Shown: in pieces, positions 3 through 32,000 of the stretch
Position numbering within the stretch: position 1 is the first letter of the stretch
Layout: each line of letters starts with the position of its first letter
Assembly (NCBI GenBank): GCA_965231145.1
Contig: OZ246420.1
Coordinates: forward strand, 30,001 to 62,000
DNA length: 32,000 nt
Reading direction: 5' to 3'
Source: Candidatus Saccharimonadota bacterium
GTDB lineage: Bacteria > Patescibacteriota > Gracilibacteria > Absconditabacterales > Absconditicoccaceae
The notes under the pieces: model-generated
The model's database searches: none
Told to the model about the DNA's origin: nothing
The model's input: only the letters and a program-made list of their open reading frames with translations
Translations under genes and position numbers: made by a program

Positions 3-404
3 AAATACTTTGGTATGGGGAAAACAGAGCTTCACTATATTTGAAGAGCGCTTGATAAGTATGGCGCGTGGGCGATCGTGCTCAGTAAATGGAATGGTTA
101 TGCACGCGGTATTATCCCATTTATTGCAGGGACAAGCAAGATGGGGTGGGGAAGATTTATGTTATTCAATTTCATAGGCTCTGCCGTTTATGCTATCATA
201 CTTATTACGCTTGCAAAGATATTTGTAGGATATTATGAGATCATTATCCCGTATATTCGCTGGATTATGCTGGGAATCTTGCTAATTGCAGGTTTATATA
301 TGTGGTTTTTCAAAAGAGACTCTCTCAAAAGATATATTCGCGCGAAAGAAAAGGAGCTTGAAGAAGCGGAAAATGTGTTAACAGAAGTGGAACATAAGCT
401 TTAA
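3..404 (+). CDS. DedA/SNARE-associated family membrane protein, 5' end cut by window edge
   Basis: The frame is open from the window edge. ...YGAWAIVLSKWNGYARGIIPFIAGTSKMGWGRFMLFNFIGS... resembles the DedA C-terminal core. One in-frame TGA (42-44) is read as Gly. TAA stop at 402-404. Confidence 0.75.
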
Positions 405-460
405 ATCCTCCGTCCACATTGTGGTGTGGACACCTCCTTTGCAAAAGGAGGCTTCTATAG
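403..460 (+). repeat. Two-hairpin repeat element, copy 1 (intergenic, overlaps the dedA-like stop codon)
   Basis: AAATCCTCCGTCCACATTGTGGTGTGGACACCTCCTTTGCAAAAGGAGGCTTCTATAG. Hairpin 1 is GTCCACA/TGTGGAC and hairpin 2 is CCTCCTTT/AAAGGAGG. Similar to elements at 20242, 21557, 23639 and 31969. Confidence 0.85.
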
Positions 461-465
461 TGTTT

Positions 466-528
466 TAGCAGTTAGCAATTAGCATATAGCAGGTAGCAAA
501 TAAAATGCTATTTGCCATCCGCTATAAT
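466..528 (+). promoter_or_regulatory. TAGCA word-repeat tract followed by a GCTATAAT -10-like box upstream of rsuA
   Basis: tagcagttagcaattagcatatagcaggtagcaaata, then TATAAT at 523-528, 25 nt before the rsuA ATG. Related in sequence to the module at 30078-30119. Confidence 0.4.
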
Positions 529-552
529 CTATCTGCTTTTAATTATAATAAG

Positions 553-1269
553 ATGATAGTAAGACTTGATAAGTATTTAGCAATGCTCGGATTGGTTTCT
601 CGTCGCGATGCTGCAAAGGCAGTGAAGAGCGGGAGTATTTTGGTCGATGGCGAGATTGCGACGAAAAGTGATATGAAGATCGGTGAATGACAAACTATTT
701 CTTTTTATGGTCAACAGATAGAGGTCAAAGAGCATGTGTATGTATTGCTGCACAAGCCAGCATGATATGTATGTTCAGAGCTTGATGAGGGCGGGCATCA
801 TTCGTATAAGATGTTGCTGCAAGATTGTCCTTATGCGCCCATGCTTCACGTCGCTGGGAGATTAGACCGAGATACAGAGTGATTGGTTTTCTGCACAAAC
901 GATGGTAATTTTACGCATGAAATTATTTCGCCAAAAAAGAAAGAAGAAAAAGAATATTATGTCGAACTTGCGTTGCCGATATCGGACGAAGATATTGCAA
1001 AGTTTGAAACATGAATACATATCAATGATGCGGAGGGTGAATTTACTTGTATGCCTGCAAAAGTAAAAAGAGTGTCTGAAAATAGTATTCTTTTGACCAT
1101 TCATGAAGGTAAGTATCATCAGGTGAAACGTATGGCGCAGGCTGTGAATAATGAGGTAATATATTTGAGGCGCGAGAGAATTGGGTCGTGGATGTTAGAG
1201 GGATTGGAGAAGTGAGAGTGGAAATATATTCAAATTCAAAAATCAGAGAGCAAAGAGCAGAATGTATAA
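553..1269 (+). CDS. rsuA: 16S rRNA pseudouridine synthase, RsuA family (S4 domain + catalytic domain)
   Basis: N-terminal S4-like RLDKYLAMLGLVSRRDAAKAVKSGSILVDGE, then HKPA-G-YVCS and GRLDRDTE-G-LVF motifs in which the Gly is encoded by TGA. Five in-frame TGA codons, no TAA/TAG until 1267-1269. Confidence 0.85.
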
Positions 1270-1290
1270 GGAATAATCATTGATCTATGT

Positions 1291-1323
1291 AAAATAAAAA
1301 AGACGCCCCTCAGCGTCTTTTTC
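1291..1323. terminator. Bidirectional intrinsic terminator between convergent rsuA and the 1334-2194 gene
   Basis: Stem AGACGC (1301-1306) / GCGTCT (1312-1317), flanked by an A-run upstream and a T-run downstream. Confidence 0.75.
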
Positions 1324-1333
1324 TGTAGTCATG

Positions 1334-2194
1334 TTAATGTGTAAATCCACATAGCTGTCGGTATTGGCGAGCAACTGAGTGGTTGACTGCGCATGTTTCA
1401 AGCATTTGTTGTGCTGCTTGTACAGACGGGAAGTCTTTGTTGATGATCGTCCCGTTGCTACGATTGATCTTTACATAGTTGTTGTATCTTCGTATACCGT
1501 AACGCTTGCCGTTTGGCGCAACAAATACGAGGCGGTTTTGATAGTCGAGGTAGTTGAGTATTCACTGCAATGTGCGGGCGTGTCTTTCTGAGACAACATT
1601 GGTACTGTTTCCTCTGCTAAATGAGAAGATCTGATTGTTTTGCCGGATGGTATACAGCCTTCCATTGAGCGTATAGTAGGTGTCGAGATAGGTGAAGCTG
1701 TTGCTTGTCCACTGAGTTGTGTTGTTTGTTCCCTTAAATACTCTTATGACTTCCTGAGTAAGGAAGTAGAGATATGCGAACTTAGTCCTTTCTGTCGTGC
1801 TCAGTGAGCTATCACGATATCTCTGCCACATGTCTGATGAGACGTTTTGGAGTGAAGCCCTTAGTTTTACCTTTGTATTTGCTCCTTCATCGAACCACAG
1901 ATGGTAAATGAGACCGGTGAAACTTCTATTGAACTCAGCTCTTTGCTGACGACTTGGGATAAAAATGTTTCCCCAATTGTTTCTTTGTTCGTCTAAAAAT
2001 CTACTGTAAAAATTGTCATATACGATAACAGAGCTGATATCGCTAATAGATTCGGGGATAGTACATGTATAACTATCGATAAATCTCTGTTCCCGGCTTG
2101 CATATGGGGAGACGCTACATGCAAAAGAGACTCAGAAAGAGCTTATGATAGCCGCGAAAGAGAGAAAACCTCGCTTGAGGATTTGACGATTCAT
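1334..2194 (-). CDS. Hypothetical secreted protein / putative lipoprotein (286 aa)
   Basis: Two standard-code fragments join in one frame through TGA at 1562-1564 and 2132-2134. N-terminus MNRQILKRGFLSFAAIISSFGVSFAC looks like a signal peptide with a lipobox-like SFAC. TAA stop at 1334-1336. No family recognised. Confidence 0.6.
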
Positions 2195-2201
2195 GGGGTA
2201 T

Positions 2202-2230
2202 TTGACAAAATTGTAAATGTGTGTATTGTA
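2202..2230 (+). promoter_or_regulatory. Candidate sigma70-type promoter for ruvX
   Basis: TTGACA at 2202-2207 and TATTGT about 16 nt downstream. Confidence 0.35.
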
Positions 2231-2303
2231 ATGCTTTTTCCTAGTAATGCAATGGATGTTTCGTATTATATACACGAATTACTTATTAATAACAAGTGTG
2301 CGT

Positions 2304-2711
2304 ATGATGAAACAGAAAAGCTCAGTGCTAGCTATAGACTGGGGAAAAAAATATATAGGTGCGGCCTATGCTCTTCAGGGATCAACGGTGGTTTTTCCTA
2401 TCGGCTATTTGACAAATGATAAAAGCGTTTTTGCGGCTCTCGGCGAGCTTATAGTTCGCTATAGAGTAAAAACGATTGTGGTTGGACTTCCTCGCGACTC
2501 ATGGGCGAGAGATCAGATCGAAAGATTTGTTCATTCCTTTGTGGGGACGCTTTCTGATGATATTGCTGTGGAGCTTTTCGATGAAGACTATACAAGCGTG
2601 CAAGCGGGAGAGAAGATTGGAAATTTTCAAAAAAACATTGCAGAAGACACGCTTGCTGCAATGCTTATTTTAGAGCGCCGACTTAACCAACCCACTTCTA
2701 CTAGTAATTAG
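2304..2711 (+). CDS. ruvX: Putative pre-16S rRNA nuclease / Holliday junction resolvase-like protein YqgF (RuvX)
   Basis: VLAIDWGKKYIGAAYA... then TIVVGLP, typical of the YqgF/RuvX fold. Start taken at ATG 2304, TAG stop at 2709-2711. Confidence 0.8.
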   Translation: MMKQKSSVLAIDWGKKYIGAAYALQGSTVVFPIGYLTNDKSVFAALGELIVRYRVKTIVVGLPRDSWARDQIERFVHSFVGTLSDDIAVELFDEDYTSVQAGEKIGNFQKNIAEDTLAAMLILERRLNQPTSTSN

Positions 2712-2770
2712 ATGTTGGATATTAGATATTGGCAAGGTGCTACAATCTAATATCTATAATCTAACTGCTG
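2712..2770 (+). promoter_or_regulatory. Orphan promoter-like module (word repeats + TGCTACAAT) pointing antisense into the adhesin gene 3' end
   Basis: ttggatattagatattggcaaggTGcTACAATctaatatcTATAATctaactgctg. Related to modules at 30078-30119 and 19354-19375. No + strand gene follows it. Confidence 0.3.
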
Positions 2771-2784
2771 TATGCCGCGGTGTG

Positions 2785-5700
2785 TTATTGTGGTGTAGTT
2801 GGTGGAGGCGGTGTTGTAGTCGTAGTTGTCGGAACTGAAGGTGGTGGAGTAGCAGCAGTATTGTTTGCTGGTACCATAGGTACGCTTCCTGCGTTTGCAT
2901 TGTCTTCTTCTTTTTTCTGCATCCTTGCCTTAAGCGCAAAGATGATAACGAGGATAACAAAGCCACCTCAGAGAATTCCAACGATCCATATGATGATAGT
3001 AAGAACCGTTCCCCATCCGCTTGATTCTGTCGCTGTTGCTACTGGTTCGGGTGTCGTCGTATCTTCTGATGCACATGTTGTACCGTCTATGCTATAGTAG
3101 TTTATGATGCGACATCTTTCTTGTTGTATCTGTGAGAAATCTTCCGCATCGATCTCGTTGTTATCAAAGGCTGCTTGTGCCTCACTCATGATTTTATCGA
3201 GATCGTCTCTTATCACGCCCTTATCTCCATCCGCAGATTCGATACCAATGAAAACATTTTCCACATTGAGTCTTCTTGTTCCCGGGAGAAGGTAGAGAAT
3301 ACCTTGTTTCGCATTTTGATATTCGGTTCCACCGAGGGCAGATTGCCCGCTTTCGTTGGTGAGTAATACAATCGTCTGGATAATGCGTGTTCTGAGATCG
3401 CCTGTTATTTGATCGGGATTTGTATCAAGATAGTCATGTATTTGTATGATGATAGACTGCGCAGATGCCGGGTCTATAAGATTGTTTCTGAGATTGAGGA
3501 GAAGAGTTTTGAGGAATGCCGCACTTTCTGGAGCCGCATCGATAAGCTGGTTAAGTTCATTGTATGTATTCTTCAAACTCTCCGGGAGAGTATTGTCGAA
3601 GTCTATGAATTCGATGCTTACGTCTCTTGTAAGGAGTACCCCATCTTTCTCGTAATATGCTCTTGCGATAGATGAGTCGTACTGAGGAGTATATTTGATC
3701 ATCGTCTCCTGGTTACATGCAATGTCTCTGTCCTGATCTGGAGTCCCGTCTTTATTGCTGTCACTCGTAATGTCCTTGTCGACATAACAGTCTCCTTTTC
3801 CGTCATATGCAACGTAGAAGAGCACGGTATTATCGAGTCCCTTACCGATCTGCACTGTTGCGTTGCCACCTGTTGTTACATCCGGTGCAGGAAGCGTCAC
3901 GATGAGAGCATCGGTTGCAGGAGTTGGTCCAACAATATCTAACAGACCTCTCTGTCTTGAACTATTTCCAAATCTATCTGCAACATCATACTGGATAGCA
4001 TACCTTCACGCTACCGGGTAGACTACAGTAAAGTAACTTCTGTTTTCAATGAGGAGATTACTGTTTGTCTTACAGGTCTTGATGTCGAGACAAAATGTTT
4101 TTGCTGTGATGTCTCCAAGACTGATATCTCTGATAATCACTCTGTCGCCTATGGTTGCATAGAGGAATTGGGCTTTCGTTCACTTCTCTACATTTACTGA
4201 CTGTCATTTTGCGATACCGCTACGGCCTCTGTAGATGACTTTTGCTCTTGGGGTAAAGATACCATCTTTCTCGTAAATATATGTTACTTTAGTGTCTCTT
4301 GTGGAAAGATCGTCTGTTCCGTCTCCATCAAAGTCGTATCTGATAACTCTGTTTGCTGCAAAGTCATCCATATTGGTAAGGACGCTCGACTTTACTTCGA
4401 GGTTCACTGTTTCTCCAACTTTTGCTGTTGGTCTATCAACAATAAGCGTCACGATAGGGATGTCTGGATTTTTGCTGTCTGGTGGAAATACCACGATTGG
4501 TCCATTTCCTATAATGTCTTCGCTTCTTATACCTGTTGCGTCATCATTGTCGTACATTTCCACACCAAATCTATATTCTCCTGCAATTCTCGGAATAGAG
4601 AAGAATACGTACGGCGTATTTCCTGGTGTGACTTTCACTTCCAGTATTCTTTCTGGATCCTGCGTGTTATAGTAGTACCATCTGTATTTGCTTACTCACT
4701 GTACGCCTCCGTCTATATCTCTTGGATTGACTGCGTCAATTCTCACGATAAGCGGATCATAGTTGAGTGTAAAAATATCTTGCTGAGCGCTTTGTCCAAA
4801 TCCAATACCCTGAGTATTTCCATACTGAGGAAATGAGATTCTTAAATTATCCAGCGTTGGTTTGCTGTTTTGTACATTGATCCAGATCTTTGCGCTTGAT
4901 GTTTTTCCTGACTGAGTGTCTTCTACCGTAAAATCTACTACATGACATCCGAGCTGATCGAAGCTGTGTCTCATCTGCTGGTTTTGTGTCACGTCGTCGT
5001 TTGCTGGCTTGAAGTAGTATCTAAGATTGTTTCTTTGGCCATTGATGTTGATAGACTCACTGCCGTCTATGGTTACATCTTCATATCTATCTATATTATA
5101 TGCTGGTACACTTCCAAGATTTGGCTGATTACATACGCCTTCCGGCATCACCACAGTTCCCTGTCTATTGAAGATCCTATATGATGGGATAGGGGCGTCT
5201 CTGTCTCCAATGAACGCCATAGCTTGTACTTCGTTTTCTTCTCCCGATGGAGAGGTCGCAATAAGCTTCACTCTATATGCTCCGCTTTGTTTGTAGGTGT
5301 GAGACGTCTTGTCTGTTTGTACAATGTTTTTTTGCTGATCTCCGAAATCCCACTGGTAACTCACAAGTGTTTTATTTGACTTCACGAGGAAGTTGGTTGT
5401 GTTTCCAAGAGTCGTTGCGATTGGTGTCACGAAAATATATGGTCTCAAAGAAGACGCGATATCGAGCTTCTTTTCGATGCTGGCAATCTTTCCAAACTTA
5501 TCTTTTACGGTAAGTCTAATATTGTATGTTCCTTTTTCTTCAAATGAAACGAGAACTCTTTTTCCATCATCAAATGATTGCTCTACTTTTGCACTTTCAC
5601 CGTTGGAGAAATTCCATTCGTATGAGAGAGCGTCGCTACCATTGGTTACATCGTAGTCGCTACTTGCTGAAGCGTTGAAAATATACTCTGAGGCATATTT

Positions 5701-7245: not shown

Positions 7246-8145
7246 TTATTTTGCTCCTCTAAATTTGTAAACGACGTAGATAAGCATCATGAGGAAGGTG
7301 CTCATCAGGATAATATTGAGACCAGGACCTGTTTGTGGTGTTCCTTTTCCAGGCACGTCACTGATAGTATCAACTTTAACATTGAGGATTCTCTCACTAC
7401 CAACTGTGTTGCCATTTGCATCCATACCAACGATCTTTACGTTGTATGAACCAGCCTTACTGACAACAAATGAAAACTGTTGATCAGTAGATTTGGCGTT
7501 TCCTACTGACTTGTAGTCAGTGTCGTTGATGTTTTTGAGAGAGAATTGATAGTTACTTACTGCTGCGCTAGCATTCCATTTGAGCATAACATTACTTCCA
7601 GAGACTACGTAGGTGAAATTTACATTTGCATCTGTCGGTGCGCCAACAGATGTGTCTACGGGTGCATCTGGAATGTTGTCTGGAGTGCTACCGAGAGTAG
7701 TGAATGAACCTTCTGTAGAAAAGTCTCCTGAAATTCCATCTTTGTTTGTTGGCTTGATGATGAAGTAGTAGAGGGTTCCTACCTTCAATCCAGTCACCTG
7801 AAGTTGGACTGTTCCCTGGCTTACTGCCGCAGCATCAAGAGTGAACTTTTGTTCGAAAAGATCTTGTGGCTCTGCAACGCTGATACTTTTACCAACGCTG
7901 TAGACCACTGAATACTGGAGGATGTTCTCTCCATTTGCTTTTACGACAGGAGCTTGGATGATAGCTCCCGTTGTTGTCATACCAGTTGCAGTGATAACAT
8001 CTGAAGGAGTGAATCCCCAAGAGATTGTGCTACCGAAAATAGAATCTATCGAAGAATCCGCCGCTAAAGATACAGATGTGATAACTGCAAGTCCTGCTGT
8101 TGCTGCAAGTGTATAGCCCAAAACTTTTTTTGACCACGTTTGCAT
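7246..8145 (-). CDS. Secreted beta-rich (Ig/FN3-like, tentative) surface protein with C-terminal TPQTG cell-wall sorting signal
   Basis: Signal-like MQTWSKKVLGYTLAATAGLAVITSVSLAA. The C-terminus ...GKGTPQTGPGLNIILMSTFLMMLIYVVYKFRGAK has LPXTG-type architecture (motif, hydrophobic stretch, basic tail). True TAA stop at 7246-7248. Confidence 0.8.
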   Translation of the reverse strand: MQTWSKKVLGYTLAATAGLAVITSVSLAADSSIDSIFGSTISWGFTPSDVITATGMTTTGAIIQAPVVKANGENILQYSVVYSVGKSISVAEPQDLFEQKFTLDAAAVSQGTVQLQVTGLKVGTLYYFIIKPTNKDGISGDFSTEGSFTTLGSTPDNIPDAPVDTSVGAPTDANVNFTYVVSGSNVMLKWNASAAVSNYQFSLKNINDTDYKSVGNAKSTDQQFSFVVSKAGSYNVKIVGMDANGNTVGSERILNVKVDTISDVPGKGTPQTGPGLNIILMSTFLMMLIYVVYKFRGAK

Positions 8146-8992: not shown

Positions 8993-9045
8993 ATAATTTT
9001 AAATGTTGAATTCTAAATTTTAAATATACCAAGGGCGTTTATCTT
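8993..9045 (+). repeat. AT-rich AATTCTAAAT-type word-repeat module, copy A (3' of frr)
   Basis: ataattttaaatgttgaattctaaattttaaatataccaaggg, starting 9 nt after the frr stop. Related copies at 19472, 21901, 23530 and 24893. Confidence 0.75.
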
Positions 9046-16773: not shown

Positions 16774-18687
16774 ATGAAAAAGATTTTATGAATAGCAAGT
16801 CTTATAGCATTTTGTACGATAGTGGTGCTTCAGCCATCTTTTGCTGAACAGTGAGATCTTCAGACCCGTATCCAAGATACGATTTCCCGTTATGAAAAGA
16901 TAAAGGCTGATAGCGTGTATTTTGATATAAGCCTGGGAACAGGCTTTGATACTAAGCAGGCTATCGAGACGGTAAACTCTCTTGGGAAGGATGTCTCTAC
17001 CGTGATTGATGAGATAGACGCGGTCCAGAAAAAGAAAAAAAATAATGATAGTAATTATAATGCAGTCCTTGAGCAGGTGAGAAAAGTCGTTATTGATATC
17101 ACCGAAACGAAGAAAGTGGTAACTGATGCTGTGACGAAGATACAAATTGCTAATAAGGATATCGTGACTACGGTAGGAGATTTGCAAGATGCAAGAAAAT
17201 ATATCGCCGCATCAAAGAGTTCACTGAGTCAGCTTGTACAGCTTTTGTATCTGATACAAAACGATTATTATGGCGGCGGAAATATAGATGACATCAAACT
17301 TCTTTTAAAGTCAGACAATATTAGCGATACGCTTTCGGCGGATGATATCATGAATACGCTGACGCTTCAGTTCGATGCGCTAATTGATGATCTGACGATC
17401 CAGCAGGAGAACTATCAGAAGCAATTTGCGAGACTGACGGAGCTCAGAGATGAGTATAAACATACGGTGATCGCCTATGAAGATAAGATGAAGACGCTTC
17501 AGGAACAGAAGGCATATCTGCTGGATTTCTTAAAGCTCTATAAAGCAAACAGGATCGAAATTACTGCAGAGATGAAAAACCTTTTCCAGACCAGAGCACA
17601 GCTCAAAGCGAAGCTTGCGACACTCGTGAGCGGACTTCGTGATTTTAAACACAACCAAGCGTTGATGTCTCATCCTGGTTATCAGGAGTTTCTCAAGCTG
17701 ACGGATGACAGAGAGAAAAGAAAAAATTTTTTCTTGTGGCCAGTGTTGCCGGTGAAGGTAATAGATCAATATTTTTCTACAGGTGTTGATAGTGAAGAAG
17801 GGTTTGTAGGAATCAGAATACATGCAAACCAGTACGATGCGATCTATGCGCCAGCAAATGGTATGGTCTACAAGGTGTCTGACCAGGATGGTATGGCGAT
17901 TAACTGGATTATACTTGTACATAATGACGGATATATGAGTGTGTTTACCAACATTAATCAGGCATTGGTTAAAGAATGAGAGGTAGTAAAACGTTGAGAG
18001 ATGATCGCGCTTGTTGGTGGACAACAAGGAACAAGAGGAGCGTGATTCCAATCACAAGGAGAAGGACTTTACCTCCAGCTCTATAAAAATGGGACACCAA
18101 TAGATCCTCTTTCAGAGATGGACTTGAGTGTTATCCCTGAGGAAACAACATTGCCTACGGTCTATACCGTCAAGCGTAATCTTGATAAGCAGATGAGAGA
18201 TACGCCAATCAAGATGTCTGATGTGCCATTTGTTGATGGAGATACACCAGAACAAAGAACAAGAGACTTCCTGAAGAGATATGCGGCAGGACCATATGCT
18301 ATGTATGCGCTCTGGGTAGCAGCAGCAAAAGATACAAATGTGGATGTAGATCTTGGTATCTGTATCGGTCTTGCAGAGACATCGCTTGGAAGATATTTTG
18401 CATCAGCAAATAATATCGGTAATGTAGGAAATAATGACCGTGGAGATAGAGTGGATCAGGACTCACCACTTGTCGGAGCAAGATCGATTTACTATACGCT
18501 TAACAATAGCTTCTTGGGTGGTTATCATACGATCTACGAGCTTTCGGGCTACGGAAATAAGAATGGCGCAATTTATGCGTCGTCACCATATAACCGGCAG
18601 AAAAATGTAACGAGATGTCTTTCAAGTATCAAAGGATATATTGTTCCGGAGGACTATCCGTTTAGGACATATAAGGTGAACAACTAA
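16774..18687 (+). CDS. Secreted EnvC-like protein: signal peptide, coiled coil, degenerate LytM (M23) domain, C-terminal glycosidase-like (GH73-like, tentative) domain (637 aa)
   Basis: MKKILGIASLIAFCTIVVLQPSFA signal peptide, then a long heptad-like region. The M23-like block is WPVLPVKVIDQYF...FVGIRIHANQYDAIYAPANGMVYKV...GEMIALVGGQQGTRGAGF...LYLQLYKNGTPIDP. It lacks the HxxxD and HxH metal ligands. C-terminal IGLAETSLGRYFASANNIGNVGN resembles the GH73 ALESGWG...NNxFGI motif. In-frame TGA at 16789, 16843, 17977, 17995 and 18043. Confidence 0.75.
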
Positions 18688-18723
18688 AACCTCACACCTT
18701 AAAACTTGAATCTCAATTAATGG

Positions 18724-19389: not shown

Positions 19390-19462
19390 GCCGCAATAGC
19401 TCAGACGGTAGAGCGCACCCATGGTAAGGGTGAGGTCACGGGTTCGATTCCCGTTTGTGGCT
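19390..19462 (+). tRNA. tRNA-Thr (anticodon GGU), CCA not encoded
   Basis: GCCGCAA acceptor arm pairs with TTGTGGC. D-arm is TAGCTCAGACGGTAGAGC. Anticodon stem CACCC/GGGTG with loop AT-GGT-AA. T-arm is GGGTTCGATTCCC. Confidence 0.9.
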
Positions 19463-19471: not shown

Positions 19472-19517
19472 ATAATTCTACATGTTGAATTCAAAATTCT
19501 AAATATAATAAGGAGGT
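19472..19517 (+). repeat. AT-rich AATTCTAAAT-type module, copy B (3' of tRNA-Thr), ends in ATAAGGAGG
   Basis: ataattctacatgttgaattcaaaattctaaatataataaggagg. Confidence 0.75.
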
Positions 19518-19956: not shown

Positions 19957-21888
19957 ATGCACATGATAATAGATCAGTATAAGAAAAAATTTGGTGAGGT
20001 GCTTGCGAGTAAGACAGGGATGGCAGTAGAAGACATTGTACTGCTTATCGAAACGCCACCACAGAGTGATATGGGAGATCTTGCATTTCCTTGTTTTTCA
20101 CTGGCGAAAGCTTTGAAGAAAGCTCCGCCTGCTATTGCCGCTGAATTGACTCAAGGGATGAGGGATGAGGGACAAGGCATGGAGATTAAAGCAATGGGAC
20201 CCTATATTAATGCATTCATAGAGAAATCTGATTTCATAAGCAAAATCCTCCGTCCTCAATGAAGCGAGGACGCCTCCTTTACAAAGAAGGCGTCTACAGA
20301 CAAGGTACTGTTAGAGTACATGAGTTGAAATCCAAATAAGCCGCTTCACGTAGGACATGCAAGAAATGTGTGTCTGGGAGACACACTGCGCCGTATTTTT
20401 GTGGCGCAATGATACGACATCACCTGCTCGCACTACGGTGATGATAGTGGAGTAAATGTCGGGTATAATCTCGTTGGTCACTTGTATTATAATATACCAT
20501 TGGGAACAGAGAAGAAATTTGATCACTACTGTGGTGAAGTCTATCTGCAGATGCGTCAGCGTGATGAAGATACTGAATTTAAGCAGCACTTGAGCGAAAC
20601 ATTGCTTGCAGTAGAGAAAGGAACTGATCCAAAGATCAATGAGCTTCATAAAGAGTATGTGAAGAAGTGTACGATTGAACAGCTTCGTACTTGCTGGAGA
20701 CTTGGTGCATCATTTGATATGATCAACTGGGAAACAGACATCCTGCACCTCAATCTTTTTGAAGAGGCAATGGAGATGCTTAAGAAAAACGGGCATGTAA
20801 AATATATGGAAGATGGAGATGCAAAAGGATGTCGGGTGATAGATCTTTCTTCGCTTCCGGAATATGCGAAAGAAGAAAAACAGTATCAGATATTGGTCAA
20901 ATCGGACGGTGTAGCGACATATGTGGCGAAGGATATTGCTTTTGCGATGTGGAAGCTTGGCTTTCTGAGTAAACAATTTCACTTCTATACGTTTACCCAG
21001 GATCCAACAGGAAAGACGGTCTACTCAACGACGTCTGATGCGAGCAAAGATGAACATAAGGATCTGGGCAATACGAATCTTGCAATCACGATCATCGACT
21101 ATCGCCAGATCCCACCACAAACCGTAGTAAGATCATCGCTGCAACTTATGGGCTTGCTGCGCGCGGACAAAGAGTACCAACCGCTTGGATATGGAGTGCT
21201 TTATCTGACGCCTGCGACATTGCTCCAAGGTGGATTTACGCTGACTGACGAAGAGAAACAGGAGGCTCGTTTGCCGTTTGCATCTCGTAAAGGGTGGACG
21301 GTAACGGTAGACCAGATGCTTGATCTGCTCCACGAAAGAGCCCTTGAGGAAACAAAGAAACGCAATGAAGACAAAGACGATGCGTGGTTGCATATGACTG
21401 CAGAGAAGATTGCTATCTCTGCGCTCAGATTTTTCCTCACAAAGACTGATCTTATGAAGGACATCACATTTGACATAGATGAGGTGCTTGATATGGAGGG
21501 AGAAACGGGAGCTTATGTGTTGTATACGTATGCGAGGCTTAGTAGCGTAATTACCCAAAATCCTCACCCTCATATAGCTGAGGGAGCTCCTTTACCAAAG
21601 GAGCCTGCTTATGATCTATTAAGTGATGAGCTTGAGCGGGAAATAGTGAAAGAGATTGATAAGCTTGAAAGTGTGATGAGCGAGGCGAGAGAGCAGCTCG
21701 CTCCACATCTGATGTGTCGCTATGTCTTGTCTCTTGCTGCTTTGTTCAATAGTTACTATAGCAAAGTGAATATTAAACTCAGTGAAGAGCCGGTGAAAGC
21801 TATGAGATTGCAACTACTTGCTCAACTTCAGAACACACTTCGTACAGCGATGAATATTGTTGGACTGCAGGAGGTAGAGAGAATGTAG
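19957..21888 (+). CDS. argS: Arginyl-tRNA synthetase
   Basis: HIGH region S-G-NPNKPLHVGHARNV, with Gly encoded by TGA. Also AQ-G-YD, the class I core, the anticodon-binding end ...YYSKVNI... and the terminal ...QEVERM typical of ArgRS. Fragments 19954-20262 and 20482-21888 share a frame. The start could be ATG 19957 or 19963. TAG stop at 21886-21888. Confidence 0.92.
20242..20299 (+). repeat. Two-hairpin repeat element, copy 2, inside the argS reading frame (encodes KILRPQGSEDASFTKKASTD)
   Basis: AAAATCCTCCGTCCTCAATGAAGCGAGGACGCCTCCTTTACAAAGAAGGCGTCTACAG. Collinear with copy 1, with compensatory stem changes (GTCCACA/TGTGGAC versus CGTCCTC/GAGGACG). Confidence 0.8.
21557..21612 (+). repeat. 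Two-hairpin repeat element, copy 3, inside the argS reading frame (encodes QNPHPHIAEGAPLPKEPAY) in a different frame from copy 2
   Basis: AAAATCCTCACCCTCATATAGCTGAGGGAGCTCCTTTACCAAAGGAGCCTGCTTAT. Hairpins CCCTCA/TGAGGG and GCTCCTTT/AAAGGAGC. Confidence 0.8.
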
Positions 21889-21900: not shown

Positions 21901-21935
21901 AATTCTAAATGTTAAATTTTAAACAACATAAGGAG
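21901..21935 (+). repeat. AT-rich AATTCTAAAT-type module, copy C (3' of argS), ends in ATAAGGAG
   Basis: aattctaaatgttaaattttaaacaacataaggag, starting 13 nt after the argS stop. Confidence 0.7.
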
Positions 21936-22002
21936 TGTTAATAAATATATTTACCCATTCCTATCAGCATGTCTTGGAGCGGGGATATAGTTCGTTTGAG
22001 AA

Positions 22003-23529: not shown

Positions 23530-23572
23530 TTAATTTTAAATGCTAAATTTTGAATTTTAAATTGAATAAGGA
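23530..23572 (+). repeat. AT-rich AATTCTAAAT-type module, copy D (3' of the 22717 gene), ends in ATAAGGAG
   Basis: taattttaaatgctaaattttgaattttaaattgaataaggag, starting 4 nt after the stop. Confidence 0.75.
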
Positions 23573-23602
23573 GTAATCATTGATTGTGTTTTGTGAATAT
23601 AA

Positions 23603-23631
23603 GAAAATCGCCCCTACAGGGGCGATTTTTG
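23603..23631. terminator. Bidirectional intrinsic terminator between the 22717 gene and the MIP channel gene
   Basis: Stem ATCGCCCC (23607-23614) / GGGGCGAT (23619-23626), with A4 upstream and T4-5 downstream. Confidence 0.75.
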
Positions 23632-23638: not shown

Positions 23639-23695
23639 TAAATTCTCACCCTCGCATTAGATGAGGGAGCTCCTTTACAAAGGAGACTTCTATAG
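23639..23695 (+). repeat. Two-hairpin repeat element, copy 4 (intergenic, ends 4 nt from the MIP gene stop)
   Basis: TAAATTCTCACCCTCGCATTAGATGAGGGAGCTCCTTTACAAAGGAGACTTCTATAG. Confidence 0.85.
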
Positions 23696-24314: not shown

Positions 24315-24402
24315 GAGAAAGGAATAAATGATAAAAGGATAAAAATGTGATAGCGTTCTTGGTGTGGGTTGCAATACCAAATGAAATCAGTACAACAATA
24401 AC

Positions 24403-24465
24403 AACTTAAAACTTAAACCATAAAACTAAAACTGGTTTTGAGTTTTCAGTCTTTAGTTTTTAGTT
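24403..24465. repeat. AACTTAAAAC-type word repeats containing a near-perfect palindrome, between divergent genes
   Basis: aacttaaaacttaaaccataAAAACTAAAACtgGTTTTGAGTTTTcagtctttagtttttagtt. The palindrome is at 24422-24446. The right half is the reverse complement of the tract at 26572-26606. Confidence 0.6.
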
Positions 24466-24466
24466 A

Positions 24467-24883
24467 ATGAGTATGAAAGACGGACTTAAGAGAACGCTCT
24501 CAGTTATCCTAGGAGCGATCGGTATAGCATATATTGTGTGGATGATGGCGCAACAACAAACATTTGTTATAGACTCGCTTATCCCATATCAGATGATCGT
24601 AGGCGTAGGATTTATCGTTTTCTTTGCAATATTTATCTTTGCTCTTGGACTCAAGCCAGTTGCAGTCAAAAGGCTTAAGTGGTGGGTGGTTCTCTATGCG
24701 ATTGTGCTTATATTCCTTGGAAATTATATGCTTATCGATAACGCAGCACAGGGAGTATTTGCAGGAGATCTTATCGTACTTCTCGGTGTTATTATTTTCT
24801 TTCTTGGTCTCGCTGGAGTGCTTCTCACGAAGAAGGTAAAACAGGAGGTTGAAAAGGCAATGCAGGAGATCATCGAAGTCTAA
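24467..24883 (+). CDS. Hypothetical integral membrane protein (138 aa, about 4 TM)
   Basis: Uninterrupted ORF with four hydrophobic segments and a TAA stop. The stop lies in the loop of the hairpin ATCGAAGTC-taatc-GACTTCGAT. Confidence 0.7.
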   Translation: MSMKDGLKRTLSVILGAIGIAYIVWMMAQQQTFVIDSLIPYQMIVGVGFIVFFAIFIFALGLKPVAVKRLKWWVVLYAIVLIFLGNYMLIDNAAQGVFAGDLIVLLGVIIFFLGLAGVLLTKKVKQEVEKAMQEIIEV

Positions 24884-24892: not shown

Positions 24893-24937
24893 ATAATTCT
24901 ACATTTTGAATGCTAAATTCTAAATATAATAAGGAAG
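24893..24937 (+). repeat. AT-rich AATTCTAAAT-type module, copy E (3' of the 24467 gene), ends in ATAAGGAAG
   Basis: ataattctacattttgaatgctaaattctaaatataataaggaag. Confidence 0.75.
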
Positions 24938-24946
24938 TATTTATTC

Positions 24947-25092: not shown

Positions 25093-25095
25093 GTT

Positions 25096-25701: not shown

Positions 25702-25768
25702 ATTGGTTGTGTTTGAATTGATATTCTACTTAGCAGAAATTATAAGTCAATAGCTGCTAAGCGAGCTC

Positions 25769-25797: not shown

Positions 25798-25827
25798 GAA
25801 ACTACTTTATCTTTTTTTTCTTTTCTC

Positions 25828-25995: not shown

Positions 25996-26066
25996 TTTGT
26001 AATATAGATTTGCAAATGAGAGACGCATGATAATGTCTCTTTACAATTTATTATTCATTACAGTCG

Positions 26067-26570
26067 ATGTACGACCAACACTCACATCATTACGAACATC
26101 ATCACCAGCGTGCTCATTACACACATCCATGGGCTTTTCTTAAGCAACTGGAAAACATGGGTGATGAGTATCTTGTTAGAAAAGCGCCATGGATCCTTCC
26201 TCATAATCGGAAGGCGGCTATCGCTAAAGTGCTTCCTGTGCTTGCGCTTATCATAGCAATTGTTTCCATACCACATATTATCTCGTCTGCGCTTTACTTG
26301 CTGGGTCTAGGAGGGTGGTTCGTTGGAGGTTATGATAGATCATACATCATGACGCTAATCCAAACACTCATTGCTGTGCTTGTTGCAGCGTTCTATTTCA
26401 GAGCTTTTGATCGTCTCAGAAAAAGGCAATATTCGTGATGGGTGTATACATTTTATGCCATTTTACTTTCGCTTATAGGTAATGTGCTCGATGGAGGTGT
26501 CTTCCGGGCGATCGTCAGCTTCCTCTTAACTATGTATCTCTTATTTCAGGCGAAGGAAATCTATCGCTAA
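26067..26570 (+). CDS. Hypothetical membrane protein with His-rich N-terminus (167 aa)
   Basis: MYDQHSHHYEHHHQRAHYTH..., then 3-4 TM segments. TGA at 26436 is read as Gly and continues into a further TM segment (WVYTFYAILLSLIGNVL...). TAA at 26568-26570. Confidence 0.7.
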
Positions 26571-26612
26571 TTAACTAAAAACTTAAAACCTAAAGCTGAA
26601 AACTTAAATATT
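26571..26612 (+). repeat. AACTTAAAAC-type word-repeat tract 3' of the 26067 gene
   Basis: ttaactaaaaacttaaaacctaaagctgaaaacttaaatattg. Related to 24403-24465 and 18688-18722. Confidence 0.6.
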
Positions 26613-26643
26613 GAAAAAATCATCCGTAAAGGGATGATTTTTC
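26613..26643. terminator. Bidirectional intrinsic terminator between the 26067 gene and VKOR
   Basis: Stem ATCATCC (26619-26625) / GGATGAT (26632-26638), with an A-run upstream and a T-run downstream. Confidence 0.75.
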
Positions 26644-26651
26644 ATAGTAAT

Positions 26652-27092: not shown

Positions 27093-27232
27093 GTGCGTAA
27101 AAAGAAGAGATAAAGATGTTAGTTTTGTCTTTCATTTTTGCGCTTAGGGTGTTCTTTTATGACATCCCACATAATATAAGTAAGATAGATGGTTTTATAG
27201 TGCATATGCTATATGAAAAAGGATATAATGAA

Positions 27233-27964: not shown

Positions 27965-27988
27965 GTATCCAAAGCGAGAAGTGAAATA

Positions 27989-29881
27989 CTACCATACTCT
28001 ATTTTTATACTCTTCGACCTTTTCTGCGATGAACTGGTCGGCTGAGAGTGTCATTTGTTCTTTCGTCTTATAGACGCGGACAGAAACAGTTTTTGCTGTG
28101 ACTTCTTCTTCACCGATGATGACAATGTATGGGATCTTGTCGAGTTCTGCATTGCGGATTTTCTTGCTGAAACTGTCGTCGCTTGTGTCGACTTTCGCTC
28201 TGAGATTTTGTTTTGCACAAGCCGTTTTGAGTTCATGACAATAGTCGACAAACTTTTCTGCAACCGGAACGAACATGATTTGTGTTGGCGCGAGCCAGAG
28301 CGGGAACGCTCCTGCAAAGTGTTCTATCATGACGCCGATGAAACGCTCAAATGATCCCATGATCGCACGATGGATAACCACTGGTCTTTCTTTTTCTCCC
28401 TGTTCGTTGACGTATGAAAGATCGAATCTTTCTGGTTGATTGAAGTCGAGCTGACATGTCGCAAGTTGCCATTCACGACCGATGGCGTCTTTGAACATGA
28501 AGTCGAGTTTTGGTCAGTAGAAAGCTGCTTCTCCTTTTCATTCTTTATAAGGAAGATTCTCTGCTTTGCACACTGCTGTCAATGCGTTTTCTGCAATAGT
28601 CCATACTTCGTCTGAACCGAGATAATTTTCTTTGACGTCGTCTCTGAGAGAGAGTCTTACCCAGTAACCTTCCATCATACCCATAGTCGTATAGAACTGT
28701 TTGATGATCTGTACGACAGTCGACACTTCTTCGTGGATTTGACTCACGCGACAGAAGAGATGTCCATCGTCTTGTGTAATAGATCTCACGCGAGCAAGAC
28801 CAGAGAGTTGTCATGTCTTCTCGTCACGATAGACAGTTGCTGGTTCGAAATATCTGATAGGCATGTCACGATATGAGAACTGATTGTCGGCGAAGAGCTG
28901 CATATGATGAGGACAGTTCATTGGCTTAACGTAGAAGTCCTCGTTTGATGTTCCGCCATGGACACTGAACATGTCTGACAAGTAATGTCCTGCATGTCAT
29001 GACATCTTATAGAGTTCTTCCTTCGCGAGATGAGGAGTCCATACTCTGTTGTATCCTCTGTCTTTGTGTAGCGACCACAGATACTCTTCGAGTTCTTTAC
29101 GAATGATTGCTCCATTTGGTTGGAAGAGCGGAAGTCCAGAACCAACGAGTTCTGAGATCGTAAAGAGTTTCAATCTTGCTCCAAGTATTCTATGATCGCG
29201 CTTCTTTGCTTCTTCCATCATAGTCTGATATTCTTTGAGCTTATCTTTTGACTCAAACGCGAGTCCATAGATTCTTGTCATCTGAGGGTTTGTCTCTTTT
29301 GCTTGCCAGTATGCACCAGCGATCTTTTCTAAGACAAACGAACCCGGATCGATTTCCTTTGTTGTCTCCACGTGAGGACCTTCACAGAGGTCGAGGAATG
29401 TTACGAATTGCTCCGATGCTATCGCTCCTGTGCCATGAAAGTATTCAGAAATGTTTTTGTAGATAGATTTATAGTCGTCTTTTGCGTATCCGAGGATTTT
29501 CTCTACAGCTGCTGCTGGGATAGTATTGAGATAGAAAGTATATTCGTTGATCCCTTTTTCAGCGAACTTTTCGATAAGTTCTTTCTTGAAGCGAGCAGCG
29601 TCACCGAAAAATGACATAATCTTTTCTGCCTCCGCTTTATCTTTTGCTGTATAGAAGACGAAAGCCTGATTTTGCTTCACAATTCCTTGTATCACTTTTG
29701 TGAGTTCTTTCAGATTTTCTTCTTTAAACTCTATTCATTCGTTGAACAGAACGTCATAATAGAAGCCATCTTCGACTGCAGGACCAGTTCCCAATGCTAC
29801 ATGAGCATCTACAGTTTGCTGGATGGCTTGCGCTAAGAGATGGGCTAATGAATGTCTGGGTTTCAAGATTTCTAATTCCAT
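27989..29881 (-). CDS. thrS: Threonyl-tRNA synthetase lacking the N-terminal TGS domain (630 aa)
   Basis: Starts [21 protein letters not shown] (N2/editing-domain HxxxH region). Class II motifs present. TGA lies on conserved Gly in [21 protein letters not shown] and AAFY-G-PKLDF. Fragments 28997-29695, 28538-28789 and 27989-28498 share a frame. TAG stop at 27989-27991. Confidence 0.93.
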
Positions 29882-30050
29882 GGGTCGTGATCTTATCATA
29901 ATAAAGAAAAACTCCTCAGTCGTAGGACGTGAAGAGCTTTATGAGACATAAACGAAACTCTACCGTCCTATTAAGGGGTTGTACCAGTGGTAGTTGTTGT
30001 CGTAAGCTGTCTTGCCTGTTTCATAGCTCCATGATAGCTTTACTTTATAC
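29882..30050 (-). promoter_or_regulatory. thrS 5' leader with mutually exclusive terminator/antiterminator pairings (T-box-like candidate)
   Basis: GGACG-GU-AGAG...CUCU-UCA-CGUCC can pair and sequester the 5' half of the terminator. CUACC upstream can pair with GGUAG of that antiterminator. A CACUGGUACAAC segment resembles the T-box core GGUGGUACC. Confidence 0.4.
29903..29936 (-). terminator. Leader (attenuator) terminator about 20 nt upstream of the thrS start codon
   Basis: On the minus strand: CTCTTCA-cgtcctacgac-TGAGGAG, then TTTTTCTTT. It sits inside the 5' UTR, not after a gene. Confidence 0.65.
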
Positions 30051-30077
30051 AAATACAAGAGGAAACGCTTTTGATTT

Positions 30078-30119
30078 TTGCAGCTAGCAACTAGCAATTG
30101 GCAACTAGTATGCTACAAT
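30078..30119 (+). promoter_or_regulatory. TAGCA word-repeat tract + TGCTACAAT module upstream of / overlapping the start of the pilin-like gene
   Basis: tgcagctagcaactagcaattggcaactagtaTGcTACAAT. Related to 466-528 and 2712-2770. Confidence 0.4.
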
Positions 30120-30559
30120 TTATCTACTATCTGCTGCCTGCGTTCTGTTGCAATGATAAGTACTTTTGCTATAGTGAGAGTATTTATTGTTTGCAGAAAA
30201 CTATGGTGCAAAAAGTGTATGCTGAAGAGGCCGCGGGTATTGATTGTGGGACAAATGCGGAAAAACTGGCCAACGGCCAGTGTACGTTCAATATCTATAA
30301 AACCGTGGGAATAAGAGAGCAAAATCAGGAACCAGACGCGAAGGCGTTTATAGAAGATATTTTTTTGTCTGCGACGTTTTTTATTGGTACTGTAGTGGGT
30401 GTGGGGCTGATTTATTCAGGTCTTATGTATATCCTTGCAAAAGATGACGGTGCAGCCGGTAAGGCGAAAAACGGTATTAAATGGTCTCTTATCGGACTTG
30501 CGCTCGTGATGTTCAGTTACACGATTATTAGGCTCGTGCAGTATATTGCTCAAGGCTAA
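30110..30559 (+). CDS. TrbC/VirB2-like small membrane protein (the 'type IV secretion pilin' type common in CPR genomes), 149 aa
   Basis: Possible long signal peptide ending KVYA/EE. Then two hydrophobic helices separated by a charged loop: FIGTVVGVGLIYSGLMYILAKDDGAAGKAKNGIKWSLIGLALVMFSYTIIRLV. The start is uncertain (ATG 30110 overlaps the -10-like box; ATG 30203 is the alternative). TAA stop at 30557-30559. Confidence 0.6.
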   Translation: MLQFIYYLLPAFCCNDKYFCYSESIYCLQKTMVQKVYAEEAAGIDCGTNAEKLANGQCTFNIYKTVGIREQNQEPDAKAFIEDIFLSATFFIGTVVGVGLIYSGLMYILAKDDGAAGKAKNGIKWSLIGLALVMFSYTIIRLVQYIAQG

Positions 30560-30577
30560 ACGCAGTTCAAGGTTCTT

Positions 30578-30618
30578 AAAGTTCATAAAGTAGAAACAAA
30601 TAAGATTTTATGAACTTT
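30578..30618 (+). other. 12-bp perfect inverted repeat followed by tandem AACTTTATA words, between the pilin-like gene and tsaB
   Basis: AAAGTTCATAAA (30578-30589) / TTTATGAACTTT (30607-30618) with a 17-nt loop, then aactttataaactttataaac. Possibly a weak terminator or an operator. Confidence 0.4.
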
Positions 30619-30646
30619 TAACTTTATAAACTTTATAAACTGTACT

Positions 30647-31339
30647 ATGTTGTACACAAATATTTCTGCGGATAAGATACAGTTTATTGTCGATGGAAAA
30701 GAGACGATTATTGAAAATGGGGAGCTAGAGAAAACGATTTCTCATTTTCTCAATTCACAAATCACAGGTCACAGTCCACAATTACAAAAGGTGTGTATTA
30801 TTAATGGACCTGGGTCGTTTACCAATATACGCATTGTGACGCTCGCGTTGAACATGTATAACTTTTTGCATAATAACGAGCTCGATTTCTATTCGATCGA
30901 TAAGATAACGCTCTATAAAAAACTGTATCAAAAAAATATTGTTCCTCGCGTGTGTTACATGTTCATTGGACAGAGAAAGAACTGGTGGCGTGTTGATCTT
31001 GAGGATGGTTCTCATGAGCAGATTCGTATAGAAGAGGTGCTGACGAGAGATGGATTTATAGATTATGTGTTTGATACAGATCATTTTCCTGGTCTTGTAG
31101 CGGGAGCTGCGCTTTCAGAGGGACACTTGCTTATTGAAAATATTCTCGATGATCTCTGAGTGACGAACTCACAATGAGGCATGATAAAGCTTTCATGGAA
31201 AGCGGAGCAGCTGGAAGTTACGTATGATAATAAGACAACATATATTTCTCTGGATGATCTTGCTGTCAGCCCGGTAAAGAGCGTAGAAGCGAATTATATG
31301 ATGGAAGCGAATGTGACACTTATCCCTCATAAAAAATAA
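30647..31339 (+). CDS. tsaB: tRNA t6A37 biosynthesis protein TsaB (YeaZ-like), divergent (230 aa)
   Basis: KVCIINGPGSFTNIRIVTLALNM matches the TsaB GPGSFTGLRIG motif. TGA at 31157 and 31175 is read through. TAA at 31337-31339. Confidence 0.7.
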
Positions 31340-31383
31340 TACATAAAAGATAAAAAATATTTATTTAGCGATATGAAGTAGAA

Positions 31384-31944
31384 ATGAGCGTAAGAAAAAT
31401 TCCCGCTGATGCGAAGAAAGTGTTTGAAAATCAGTTGTTTGTAGCATATGAGAAAGAAACAGAGTTGTTTGATGGGACGACGAAGACATTTGAGTGGGTA
31501 AGAGCATATGATGTGGTAAAGGCAATCTGTGTAGTGGATGGGAAAATTCTTGTGCTCGCAAGTGAGCAGCCATGAACAAGTACATATTATACGATCCCAG
31601 GCGGTATGATTGACAGTGGTGAAGAGCCAGATGCTGCTATAGTGAGAGAAGTGGCAGAAGAGACGGGAATCACATTTAACGAGTTTTTTCCGCTTACGTC
31701 TGTGTCGAGTAATGTAGGGTTGGTTGAATCATATAAGCACTATTATCTGGCTCGTGGTCCGCTCTCATTTGGAGAACAACAGCTTGATGGGGGTGAGCTT
31801 ATTTCGGTAGAATATATTTCTTTTGAAGATTTTATAGAACACGTGAAGCGTGGAGACCTATTCTACGATCTCGGTAATTGGTTTTTGAGAGAGTATGTTG
31901 TGCCTGGAAAGATAGATGAGTTGAAAGAGCTTTTGTTCTCATAG
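31384..31944 (+). CDS. Nudix hydrolase (ADP-ribose pyrophosphatase-like, 186 aa)
   Basis: Nudix box PGGMIDSGEEPDAAIVREVAEETGI. Fragments 31384-31575 and 31606-31944 share a frame and join through TGA (EQP-G-TSTYY). TAG stop at 31942-31944. Confidence 0.85.
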
Positions 31945-31968
31945 TAAATGGTTATATTTGCTATTATG

Positions 31969-32000
31969 AAAATCCTCACCCTGATATAGCTCAGGGAGCT
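31969..32000 (+). repeat. Two-hairpin repeat element, copy 5 (3' of the Nudix gene, cut by the window end)
   Basis: AAAATCCTCACCCTGATATAGCTCAGGGAGCT. Differs from copy 3 by a compensatory C/G swap in the stem (CCCTGA/TCAGGG versus CCCTCA/TGAGGG). Confidence 0.8.

Follow-up and report, generated by a model that had tools for sequence, protein, structure and literature searches.

Palindromic repeats of the CGTC-tagged REP (repetitive extragenic palindromic) type are among the described systems closest to the element reported here. Each has a tag at one end of the palindrome (CGTC, or TGTC/CCTC), then a stem of 8-9 bp whose first pairs are complementary A/T, a loop of 4-5 nt and a CCA tail; they occur in five phyla, mostly in Alphaproteobacteria (Di Nocera, De Gregorio & Rocco 2013, PMC3733652). 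Most form head-to-head dimers, most lie just downstream of open reading frames (ORFs), and some are in-frame within genes for UvrA/B/C/D, PolA, photolyase and tRNA synthetases; none has a known transposase (PMC3733652). Rickettsia conorii RPE-4 and RPE-6 and Neisseria dRS3 belong to this group (Di Nocera, De Gregorio & Rocco 2013, PMC3733652). Here we describe a repeat family of this kind from a 32,000-nt stretch of an Absconditicoccaceae genome deposited as Candidatus Saccharimonadota bacterium (GCA_965231145.1, contig OZ246420.1, positions 30,001 to 62,000; hereafter the window). A unit is about 45-57 nt long and has three parts, a 5' segment S (AAATCCTCC), a variable hairpin H1, and a second hairpin H2 (CCTCCTTT-loop-AAAGGAGG). 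The REP/RPE kind of repeat is already described; the segment S and its triplex-like covariation with H2 are the apparently new part, and the text of PMC3733652 has no mention of GGAGG, CCTCC, mirror or triplex.

Two other described systems are relevant. The Rickettsia palindromic elements (RPEs) RPE-1 to RPE-3 (Ogata et al. 2000, 2002) are about 100-150 bp long and are described as Rickettsia-specific (cited from PMC3733652 and PMC3767692). BoxC/PIT/TMECO elements are intrastrand triplex repeats known from E. coli and further Proteobacteria (Hoyne et al. 2000; Holder et al. 2015). According to PMC4666352, TMECO forms a triplex in vitro, BoxC-type repeats mark unstable loci and stall DNA polymerase in vitro, and pyrimidine-motif intrastrand triplexes can form in RNA, whereas purine-motif triplexes do not.

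Five copies of the repeat (c1 to c5; Table 1) are present in the window, all on the + strand as the original prediction had placed them, and a covariance-model search with filters off found no more on either strand. The model was built from 24 units of other phyla and included no window sequence, so a match is an independent test of family membership. Copy c1 scored 55.7 bits (E 9.4e-14), c2 36.4 bits (E 2.2e-8), c3 36.9 bits (E 1.6e-8) and c4 26.0 bits (E 1.7e-5), while the incomplete c5 scored 7.9 bits; thus all four complete copies were found. The H2 pattern had six matches in the window, with 1.0 expected by chance. In the complete copies, AAATCCTC(C/A) is followed in turn by H1, a linker of 1-2 nt, (C/G)CTCCTTT-loop-AAAGGAG(G/C) and a tail close to CTTCTATAG.

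The family extends well beyond this genome. Species-representative genomes were scanned with the exact pattern AAATYCTC-N18-30-CTCCTTT-N2-3-AAAGGAG, and at least 119 loci matched, compared with about 3 expected by chance (an estimate from collection size). Within 730 kb of pattern-matched loci, the covariance model found 188 units at E<=1e-3. The matches listed have in common several features that lie outside the scan pattern: a C after AAATCCTC, a G or CGTC opening the hairpin, CA before CCTCC, and G after AAAGGAG. Among these matches, the patescibacterial hosts are Parcubacteria groups, Saccharibacteria, 'Peribacteria', Gracilibacteria and SR1; the others include Oscillospirales, Rickettsiales-like and other alphaproteobacterial metagenome-assembled genomes (MAGs), Bacteroidia/Flavobacteriales, Spirochaetota, Omnitrophota and more, although some MAG labels are clearly unreliable. 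The five window sequences are therefore true copies of a repeat family spanning many bacterial phyla. A covariance-model search of the kind proposed for finding further copies added none in the window and many in other genomes. The comparison with RPEs was right in kind, with in-frame copies in variable loops, but too narrow in host range; nor is the element peculiar to bacteria of the candidate phyla radiation (CPR) that use genetic code 25, since the family occurs in many phyla and its kind has been described as CGTC-tagged REPs (PMC3733652).

Database searches gave little else. Rfam at the gathering score reported only a tRNA in the window (19390-19462, +, 66.5 bits), and at E<=10 a head-to-head pair from another locus (L012) gave chance microRNA-type matches of about 20 bits against gathering scores of 80-100. 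No match was found in plasmids and phages by blastn with one unit. A pattern scan of 2.9 million viral contigs found only 2 loci, so phages are no obvious vehicle. The lineage-specific tail CTTCTATAG had 0 matches in a metagenome scan, and a second metagenome scan found a related low-GC subfamily, not the window organism. No description of an S-H1-H2 family was found in the searchable literature, which does not prove that none exists. Nothing relevant was found in the literature on Patescibacteria repeats, and the raw sequence strings matched only primers and short hairpin RNA constructs.

Near-identical copies occur within one Oscillospiraceae MAG, Th196P3bin17. There the units (L006 at about 3300-3340 and L007 at about 4025-4065) have GGCTTGACAAAT-N17-TATTCTAAT after them, a sequence that resembles a sigma-70 promoter with its -35 box abutting the unit. 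About 25 nt upstream of S are also conserved in this MAG, and the mobile unit there is therefore larger.

Both hairpins are found throughout the family. RNA folding of each complete window copy gave exactly two hairpins, with z values of -1.8 to -3.9 against shuffles (c1, -3.9). In 141 distinct model-aligned units, 92.8% of cells are paired, compared with 80% in shuffles and 47-65% with slid partners, figures that lean towards the structure because the alignments were fitted to it. In all, 253 cells are changed on both sides, and every H1 pair has two-sided changes; a hand-checked alignment of 24 sequences gives the same hairpin picture, and over the two alignments together the figures are 92-93% paired and 45-65% with slid partners. 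The usual form of H1 in the family is CGTC-stem-loop-stem-(G)CCA, for example CGTC-ACGCC-TGAC-GGCGTG-CCA. In the window its stems are 5-8 bp with no A.T-first pairs, its loops are 4-9 nt, and its tails are ACC, GCC or AG. H1 is free to vary in sequence with its pairing kept, and this is a structured family under selection for structure. The original prediction had argued the same from compensatory changes among the window copies, which it quoted correctly and of which CCCTGA/TCAGGG in c5 relative to c3 is one. It also recognized both hairpins but missed the conserved 5' segment S, which covaries with H2.

Segment S is the mirror of the H2 pyrimidine arm, i.e., the parallel complement of the purine arm, and it follows the arm when the arm departs from CCTCC/GGAGG. 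Variant pairs of S and H2 include CTCCC with CCCTC, CCCTC with CTCCC or CACCC, and CCCCC with CCCCC. Among 39 distinct units in which the H2 arm is not its own mirror, 29 have an exact mirror S and none has a direct repeat; overall, 97 of 123 mirror matches were counted against a shuffle maximum of 60. Across the 141 distinct units, S column 10 and H2 column 82 combine as U.A (99) or C.G (41) and in no other way, and S column 11 and H2 column 83 combine as C.G (114), U.A (26) and one U.G, again with no other combinations. There are 67 double changes and no violations in the parallel register of S with the purine arm. The S columns were not fitted to the mirror relation, because they are unpaired in the model alignment. 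In the window, TCCTCC occurs with AGGAGG in c1 and TCCTCA with AGGAGC in c3 and c5; TTCTCA in c4 has one mismatch, and c2 has one break in H2, a single G>A. Watson-Crick pairing requires antiparallel complements, so this parallel covariation is not of the Watson-Crick type; a third strand lying in the major groove predicts it. Pairings inside inverted dimers were checked as another source of the relation, and none predicts a mirror.

The topology of the unit is consistent with such a fold. H1 links S to the pyrimidine arm of H2, so that the 3' end of the former and the 5' end of the latter come together at the base of H2. On the + strand of the window the blocks run Hoogsteen-Y-R, the pyrimidine-motif layout (T.A-T and C+.G-C triplets), and on the complementary strand they run Y-R-reverse-Hoogsteen, the purine-motif layout (G.G-C, A.A-T and T.A-T), as CCTCCTTT-loop-AAAGGAGG-[H1]-GGAGGATTT. 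Pyrimidine-motif triplexes are possible in RNA or DNA but need protonated cytosines, while purine-motif triplexes form in DNA only and are pH-independent. On the minus strand of the complete copies, 8 of 8 positions give allowed purine-motif triplets. In the pyrimidine motif, neither the invariant AAA in S nor the CACCC variant is canonical. The triplet rules thus mildly favor single-stranded DNA of the minus strand as the putative triplex former. That a triplex forms, and on which strand and in which molecule, we infer from the sequences.

A separate observation concerns L135, a low-GC metagenome contig. Here a BoxC/TMECO-like sequence (cccctctcc-taat-aggagaggg-tta-gggtgag) lies directly 3' of a unit at about 7890-7940, so short-loop and hairpin-loop triplex motifs co-occur.

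The original prediction had noted the resemblance of H2 to a Shine-Dalgarno (SD) sequence, which raises a possible function in translation. Under translational control, a perfect SD sequence (AAAGGAGG) would be hidden in H2 by a mimic (CACCUCCUUU) of the 16S 3' end, S would be an alternative partner, and the element would regulate the downstream gene or titrate ribosomes. The sequence AAAGGAGG is indeed the consensus SD, CACCTCCTTT is identical to the usual 16S rRNA 3' end, and some Patescibacteria units are followed by GAATAA-N-ATG. However, an ORF of at least 80 codons opens from a start codon 3-12 nt downstream of the unit in only 8 of 146 cases, and no start codon lies at ribosome-binding-site distance downstream of any window copy. 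The H2 variants AAAGGGAG, AAAGAGGG and AAAGGGGG are common and are not SD sequences, and in such variants S, being a mirror and not a reverse complement, is unable to form antiparallel pairs with the SD arm. Position statistics and non-SD variants largely refute a riboswitch or SD-sequestration role, and we regard translational control as very improbable.

Two of the window copies, c2 and c3, are in-frame within argS, which encodes arginine-tRNA ligase (ArgRS). The gene is a single continuous ORF when TGA is read as sense, and the two copies lie in it in two different frames, as predicted; they encode the peptides KILRPQGSEDASFTKKAST (c2) and QNPHPHIAEGAPLPKEPAYD (c3). In-frame TGA codons are at 20260, 20326 and 20410, one of them within the H1 loop of c2. 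Reading through TGA doubles the long-ORF content of the window, and at the TGA position in the ArgRS motif EYMS-TGA-NPNKPLHVGH orthologues have G, A or W (W from code-4 gene calls); TGA is therefore a sense codon, most simply for glycine (code 25). The best ArgRS matches are SR1/Absconditabacteria proteins, with 60% identity over the full length and 75% for one fragment. Copy c2 is in the linker before the HIGH motif and c3 in the linker after YARLSS. Both are hypervariable, indel-rich linkers in 60 orthologues, which bears out their earlier description as variable loops. In an AlphaFold2 model of ArgRS residues 153-643 (mean confidence, pLDDT, 90), the c3 residues form a coil between two helices, where confidence is the lowest in the model (76 and 60). 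Copy c2 was judged from alignments.

Relatives were compared with the window. The closest available one (L120; ArgRS 75% identical, with the same argS-META-MIP gene order) has no element at its counterparts of the c2, c3 and c4 sites. No convincing model match was found in L120 (5 kb), in the relative with 60% identity (22 kb) or in the closed SR1 genome RAAC1 (22 kb around argS), compared with five copies in the 32 kb of the window. This is the pattern of an apparently recent, lineage-specific expansion.

Other SR1-type ArgRS proteins have different, longer insertions, before HIGH in P0008, P0020 and P0026 and after YARxxS in P0015 and P0019. The P0008 linker contains a duplicated LRSTWQE segment. 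The two ArgRS loops appear to be recurrent landing sites. An 'NNPEP' peptide in SR1 orthologues resembles QNPHP, encoded by c3, and was considered as a trace of the element; the RAAC1 DNA has no hairpins or model match there, and the likeness is treated as chance or native microhomology.

Across the family, units are single or in inverted pairs, and they lie between genes or in-frame within long conserved ORFs in several phyla. Neighboring units no more than 60 nt apart are head-to-head (18) or tail-to-tail (13), never head-to-tail (0). Within ORFs, units occur in both orientations and several frames. In the isoleucyl-tRNA synthetase (IleRS) of a Rickettsiales-like MAG, alignment to solved IleRS structures shows a clean 46-aa insertion where the solved homologue is contiguous. 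Other in-frame hosts are MurD-like, Mfd-like and UvrD/AddA-like proteins, UvrC, PolA, photolyase, ClpB and ABC ATPases. All-against-all clustering of ORFs from the matches listed found no protein family recurring beside units (the maximum was 5 of the 119 loci listed) and no recurrent transposase family; therefore, the element is non-autonomous and not tied to cargo.

We infer that the family has spread by transposition. The reading we favor, with a modest lean towards it, is that of a selfish, non-autonomous REP/RPE-type repeat with a conserved, hairpin-clamped core that may form a triplex. In the proposed mechanism, a single strand would fold into H1 and, 3' of it, the polypyrimidine/polypurine hairpin H2; S would be the third strand in H2's major groove, and H1 would make up the loop between them. 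The folded strand could be recognized by a trans-acting copying or insertion machinery, or it could stall replication and provoke copying. Copies would land anywhere. Selection would keep intergenic copies, often just past a stop codon, and would also keep in-frame, stop-free copies in protein surface loops that tolerate them, the two ArgRS linkers being examples. A wider claim, that the triplex core is pan-bacterial (CPR, Firmicutes, Alphaproteobacteria, Bacteroidota), most likely acts as purine-motif single-stranded DNA, and is recognized or exploited for copying, is tentative, and we give it less than an even chance.

Several points weigh against a selfish repeat with a triplex core. The argS copies replace native linkers with a net gain of only 4 and 5 aa (17 versus 13 and 20 versus 15), so that these segments, which the closest relative lacks, are net replacements and not clean 19-aa additions. 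Native DNA of the relative resembles the element at both argS junctions (AAAT on the 5' side; AAGGCG…ACAGA or AGAGGAGAC on the 3' side; window 20226-20300 and 21540-21615 versus L120 1930-2010 and 3235-3300), which cut-and-paste insertion does not predict. Insertion with a compensating deletion under length constraint, microhomology replacement, and chance are possible explanations, and microhomology-mediated replacement, more than simple insertion, may be what the junctions hint at. Neither target-site duplication nor transposase nor within-population insertion polymorphism was seen; at c1-c5, which are single units without terminal inverted repeats, no target-site duplication is visible. The predicted triplex stem is short, with 6-8 triplets, and at neutral pH its + strand version needs four C+.G-C. 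Much of the covariation separates a few subfamilies, and the cell counts therefore overstate the number of independent events. Close placement at gene 3' ends in sense orientation, seen for three of the five window copies, also fits a role in RNA. Finally, the family has no strand bias relative to local GC skew (39 versus 34 singletons), and a replication-strand-specific single-stranded DNA mechanism of the IS200/IS605 type is therefore not supported.

Position near gene ends is a feature of c1, c4 and c5, which lie 0-25 nt from them, as had been noticed before. A VTT/DedA-type gene takes the last two letters of its TAA stop (402-404) from the first two A's of c1, and downstream lies a gene for an RsuA-type pseudouridine synthase. 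Copy c4 is between a META-domain gene and a convergent minus-strand MIP gene, with 4 nt separating its end from the MIP stop (23700), and c5 starts 25 nt past the stop of a NUDIX gene. Four of the five copies are sense to the neighboring or host gene. Such placement would suit a host-beneficial RNA element whose hairpins and pyrimidine-motif RNA triplex block 3'-to-5' exonucleases or end transcription, intragenic copies being by-products. Such a role has been proposed for classical REPs, and ENE triple helices are an example of it in the RNAs of eukaryotes and viruses. Folds more stable than shuffles agree with this explanation, as do the location of described REPs mostly just downstream of ORFs (PMC3733652) and the possibility of pyrimidine-motif intrastrand triplexes in RNA stated in PMC4666352. 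However, units inside ORFs have either orientation, inverted pairs occur, the corresponding gene ends of relatives are free of the element, and no Rfam family matches. There is no U-tract after H2, which is followed by CTTCTATAG, CGTCTACAG or CCTGCTTAT in c1-c4, and c4 comes after a separate intrinsic-terminator-like hairpin and T-run at about 23604-23630 that follows the META-domain gene. Purine-motif triplets, which form only in DNA, accommodate both the invariant AAA in S and the CACCC variant, and pyrimidine-motif triplets do not. We consider an RNA element unlikely as the explanation of the family, and intergenic copies of a selfish repeat may additionally stabilize or terminate transcripts.

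Orientation in the window is uniform. All five copies are on the G-rich strand of a region with uniformly positive GC skew, but with a p of about 0.06 this is not significant. Uniform orientation would fit a domesticated DNA structural site kept by the host, such as one where a nucleoid, topoisomerase or replication protein binds or pauses; bacterial interspersed mosaic elements (BIMEs) and REPs are sites for gyrase and integration host factor. Conservation of the core sequence across phyla also fits, as does the stalling of DNA polymerase in vitro by BoxC-type triplexes (PMC4666352). Such a site is distinctly unlikely, as the family is patchy among close relatives, disrupts essential proteins in-frame, and has no family-wide strand bias.

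The window copies are all single units, none paired. Copies c1 and c2 have CATAAGC in common just upstream of S, and c3 (in argS) and c5 (intergenic) are 94% identical over 32 nt. In c3, H2 is GCTCCTTT-ACC-AAAGGAGC. The window also contains a second repeat family of about 45 nt (Table 1), which is AT-rich (TATAATTCTAAATGTTGAATTCTAAATTTTAAATATAATAAGGAGGT), contains sub-repeats resembling AATTCTAAAT and has an SD-like end. Gene ends also carry direct and inverted A-rich repeats of the AAAACTTAAAACC type (18678-18710, 24399-24471 and 26567-26608).

Table 1. Positions and structure of the repeat copies, the host gene argS and the second repeat family in the window.
Feature	Positions	Strand	Structure and context
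Copy c1, subfamily A	403-460	+	S AAATCCTCC 403-411; H1 412-431, arms GTCCACAT/GTGTGGAC after CGTC tag; linker A 432; H2 433-451, CCTCCTTT-GCA-AAAGGAGG; tail 452-460, lineage-specific CTTCTATAG
Copy c2, subfamily A	20242-20299	+	S 20243-20251; H1 20252-20271; H2 20273-20290; tail to 20299; in-frame in argS
Copy c3, subfamily B	21557-21612	+	S AAATCCTCA 21558-21566; H1 21567-21584; H2 21586-21604; in-frame in argS
Copy c4, subfamily B	23639-23695	+	S 23640-23648; H1 23649-23667; H2 23669-23686; tail CTTCTATAG 23687-23695; intergenic
Copy c5, subfamily B	31969-32000	+	S 31970-31978; H1 31979-31996; H2 cut by window end
argS, arginine-tRNA ligase	19957-21888	+	643 aa with TGA as sense; PF03485, PF00750 and PF05746 homologues; host of c2 and c3
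Second repeat family	8993-9038, 19472-19517, 21901-21936, 23530-23575, 24893-24938	+	Each 4-13 nt after a + strand gene stop or tRNA

For more than 20 years it has been a question how transposase-less REP/RPE repeats spread and why so many of them are found in genes for repair and translation. Three modules whose covariation predicts a specific fold provide a structural handle on this spread, and the family links two separate literatures, those on REP/RPE elements and on BoxC-type intrastrand triplexes. The argS copies show that essential enzymes of genome-reduced CPR bacteria can contain peptides derived from repeats. This matters for annotation, for protein-family alignments, and for the use of insertions as lineage markers. 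If the triplex core is real, it would be the first natural bacterial triple helix backed by phylogenetic covariation, and it would point to a new host-independent route for short-repeat movement, including into essential genes of TGA-recoded ultra-small bacteria.

[quoted passage not shown] In contrast to MITEs, neither target-site duplications nor a transposase-bearing parent related to it were seen, and single units are common. RPE-1 to RPE-3 are similar in being selfish palindromic DNA in-frame in surface loops of functional proteins, but they are longer than the present units. No units were found in 50 kb of Rickettsia plasmid pRF, and searching with a peptide gave no match.

CGTC-tagged REPs are similar in several respects. 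In most units of the family, H1 has the tag and tail that define these REPs. Both groups form inverted dimers and essentially never head-to-tail pairs, and neither has a known dedicated transposase. Both lie just past ORF ends or in-frame, with a common preference for UvrC, UvrD, PolA, photolyase and tRNA synthetases. In the window, c1 and c2 have CCGTCC, while c3-c5 have CCTCACCC, which fits only a loose CCTC variant; most units in other phyla have CGTC. No window copy has an A.T-first stem or an exact CCA tail, but alphaproteobacterial units such as CGTCATCGCACTTCGTGCGATGCCA (L088) have this stem, loop and CCA. Classical copies (CGTCATTCCCGCGAAAGCGGGAATCCAG; read directly in Sphingopyxis ileS, Neisseria and Azospirillum) are without S and H2, whereas all five window copies have S and the four complete ones also have H2. 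The encoded peptides differ as well, VIPAKAGIQ and SFLRKQES in classical copies and …SFxKGG and NPPS… in the present family. The present host range reaches Patescibacteria, including TGA-recoded SR1, and Oscillospirales.

BoxC/TMECO elements, as described in the text of PMC4666352, provide the other half of the comparison. On the minus strand of the complete copies, a Y arm, an R arm and a mirror R arm lie on one strand ('class II'), as in BoxC/TMECO. In both families T is tolerated opposite A.T pairs (GGGTG variants), and both are multicopy and patchy among relatives. The sequence is unrelated to the BoxC/TMECO consensus, CCCTCNCCC-N3-6-GGGNGAGGG-N3-GGGNGAGGG with 1-6 nt loops. The second loop is 3 nt in BoxC/TMECO and a REP-like H1 hairpin of 17-30 nt in the present family; stems are 9 nt and G-rich in the former and 8 nt and mixed A/G in the latter. 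The published search for such triplex motifs (ITxF) allowed loops of 1-6 nt and therefore could not find a motif with a hairpin loop. BoxC is not reported inside ORFs in that text, whereas the present family is found there, and the TMECO triplex was shown in vitro while that of the present family is predicted from its nucleotide pattern. From these comparisons, the family looks like a combination of the two systems, with a REP-like hairpin embedded in a BoxC-like, putatively triplex-forming frame.

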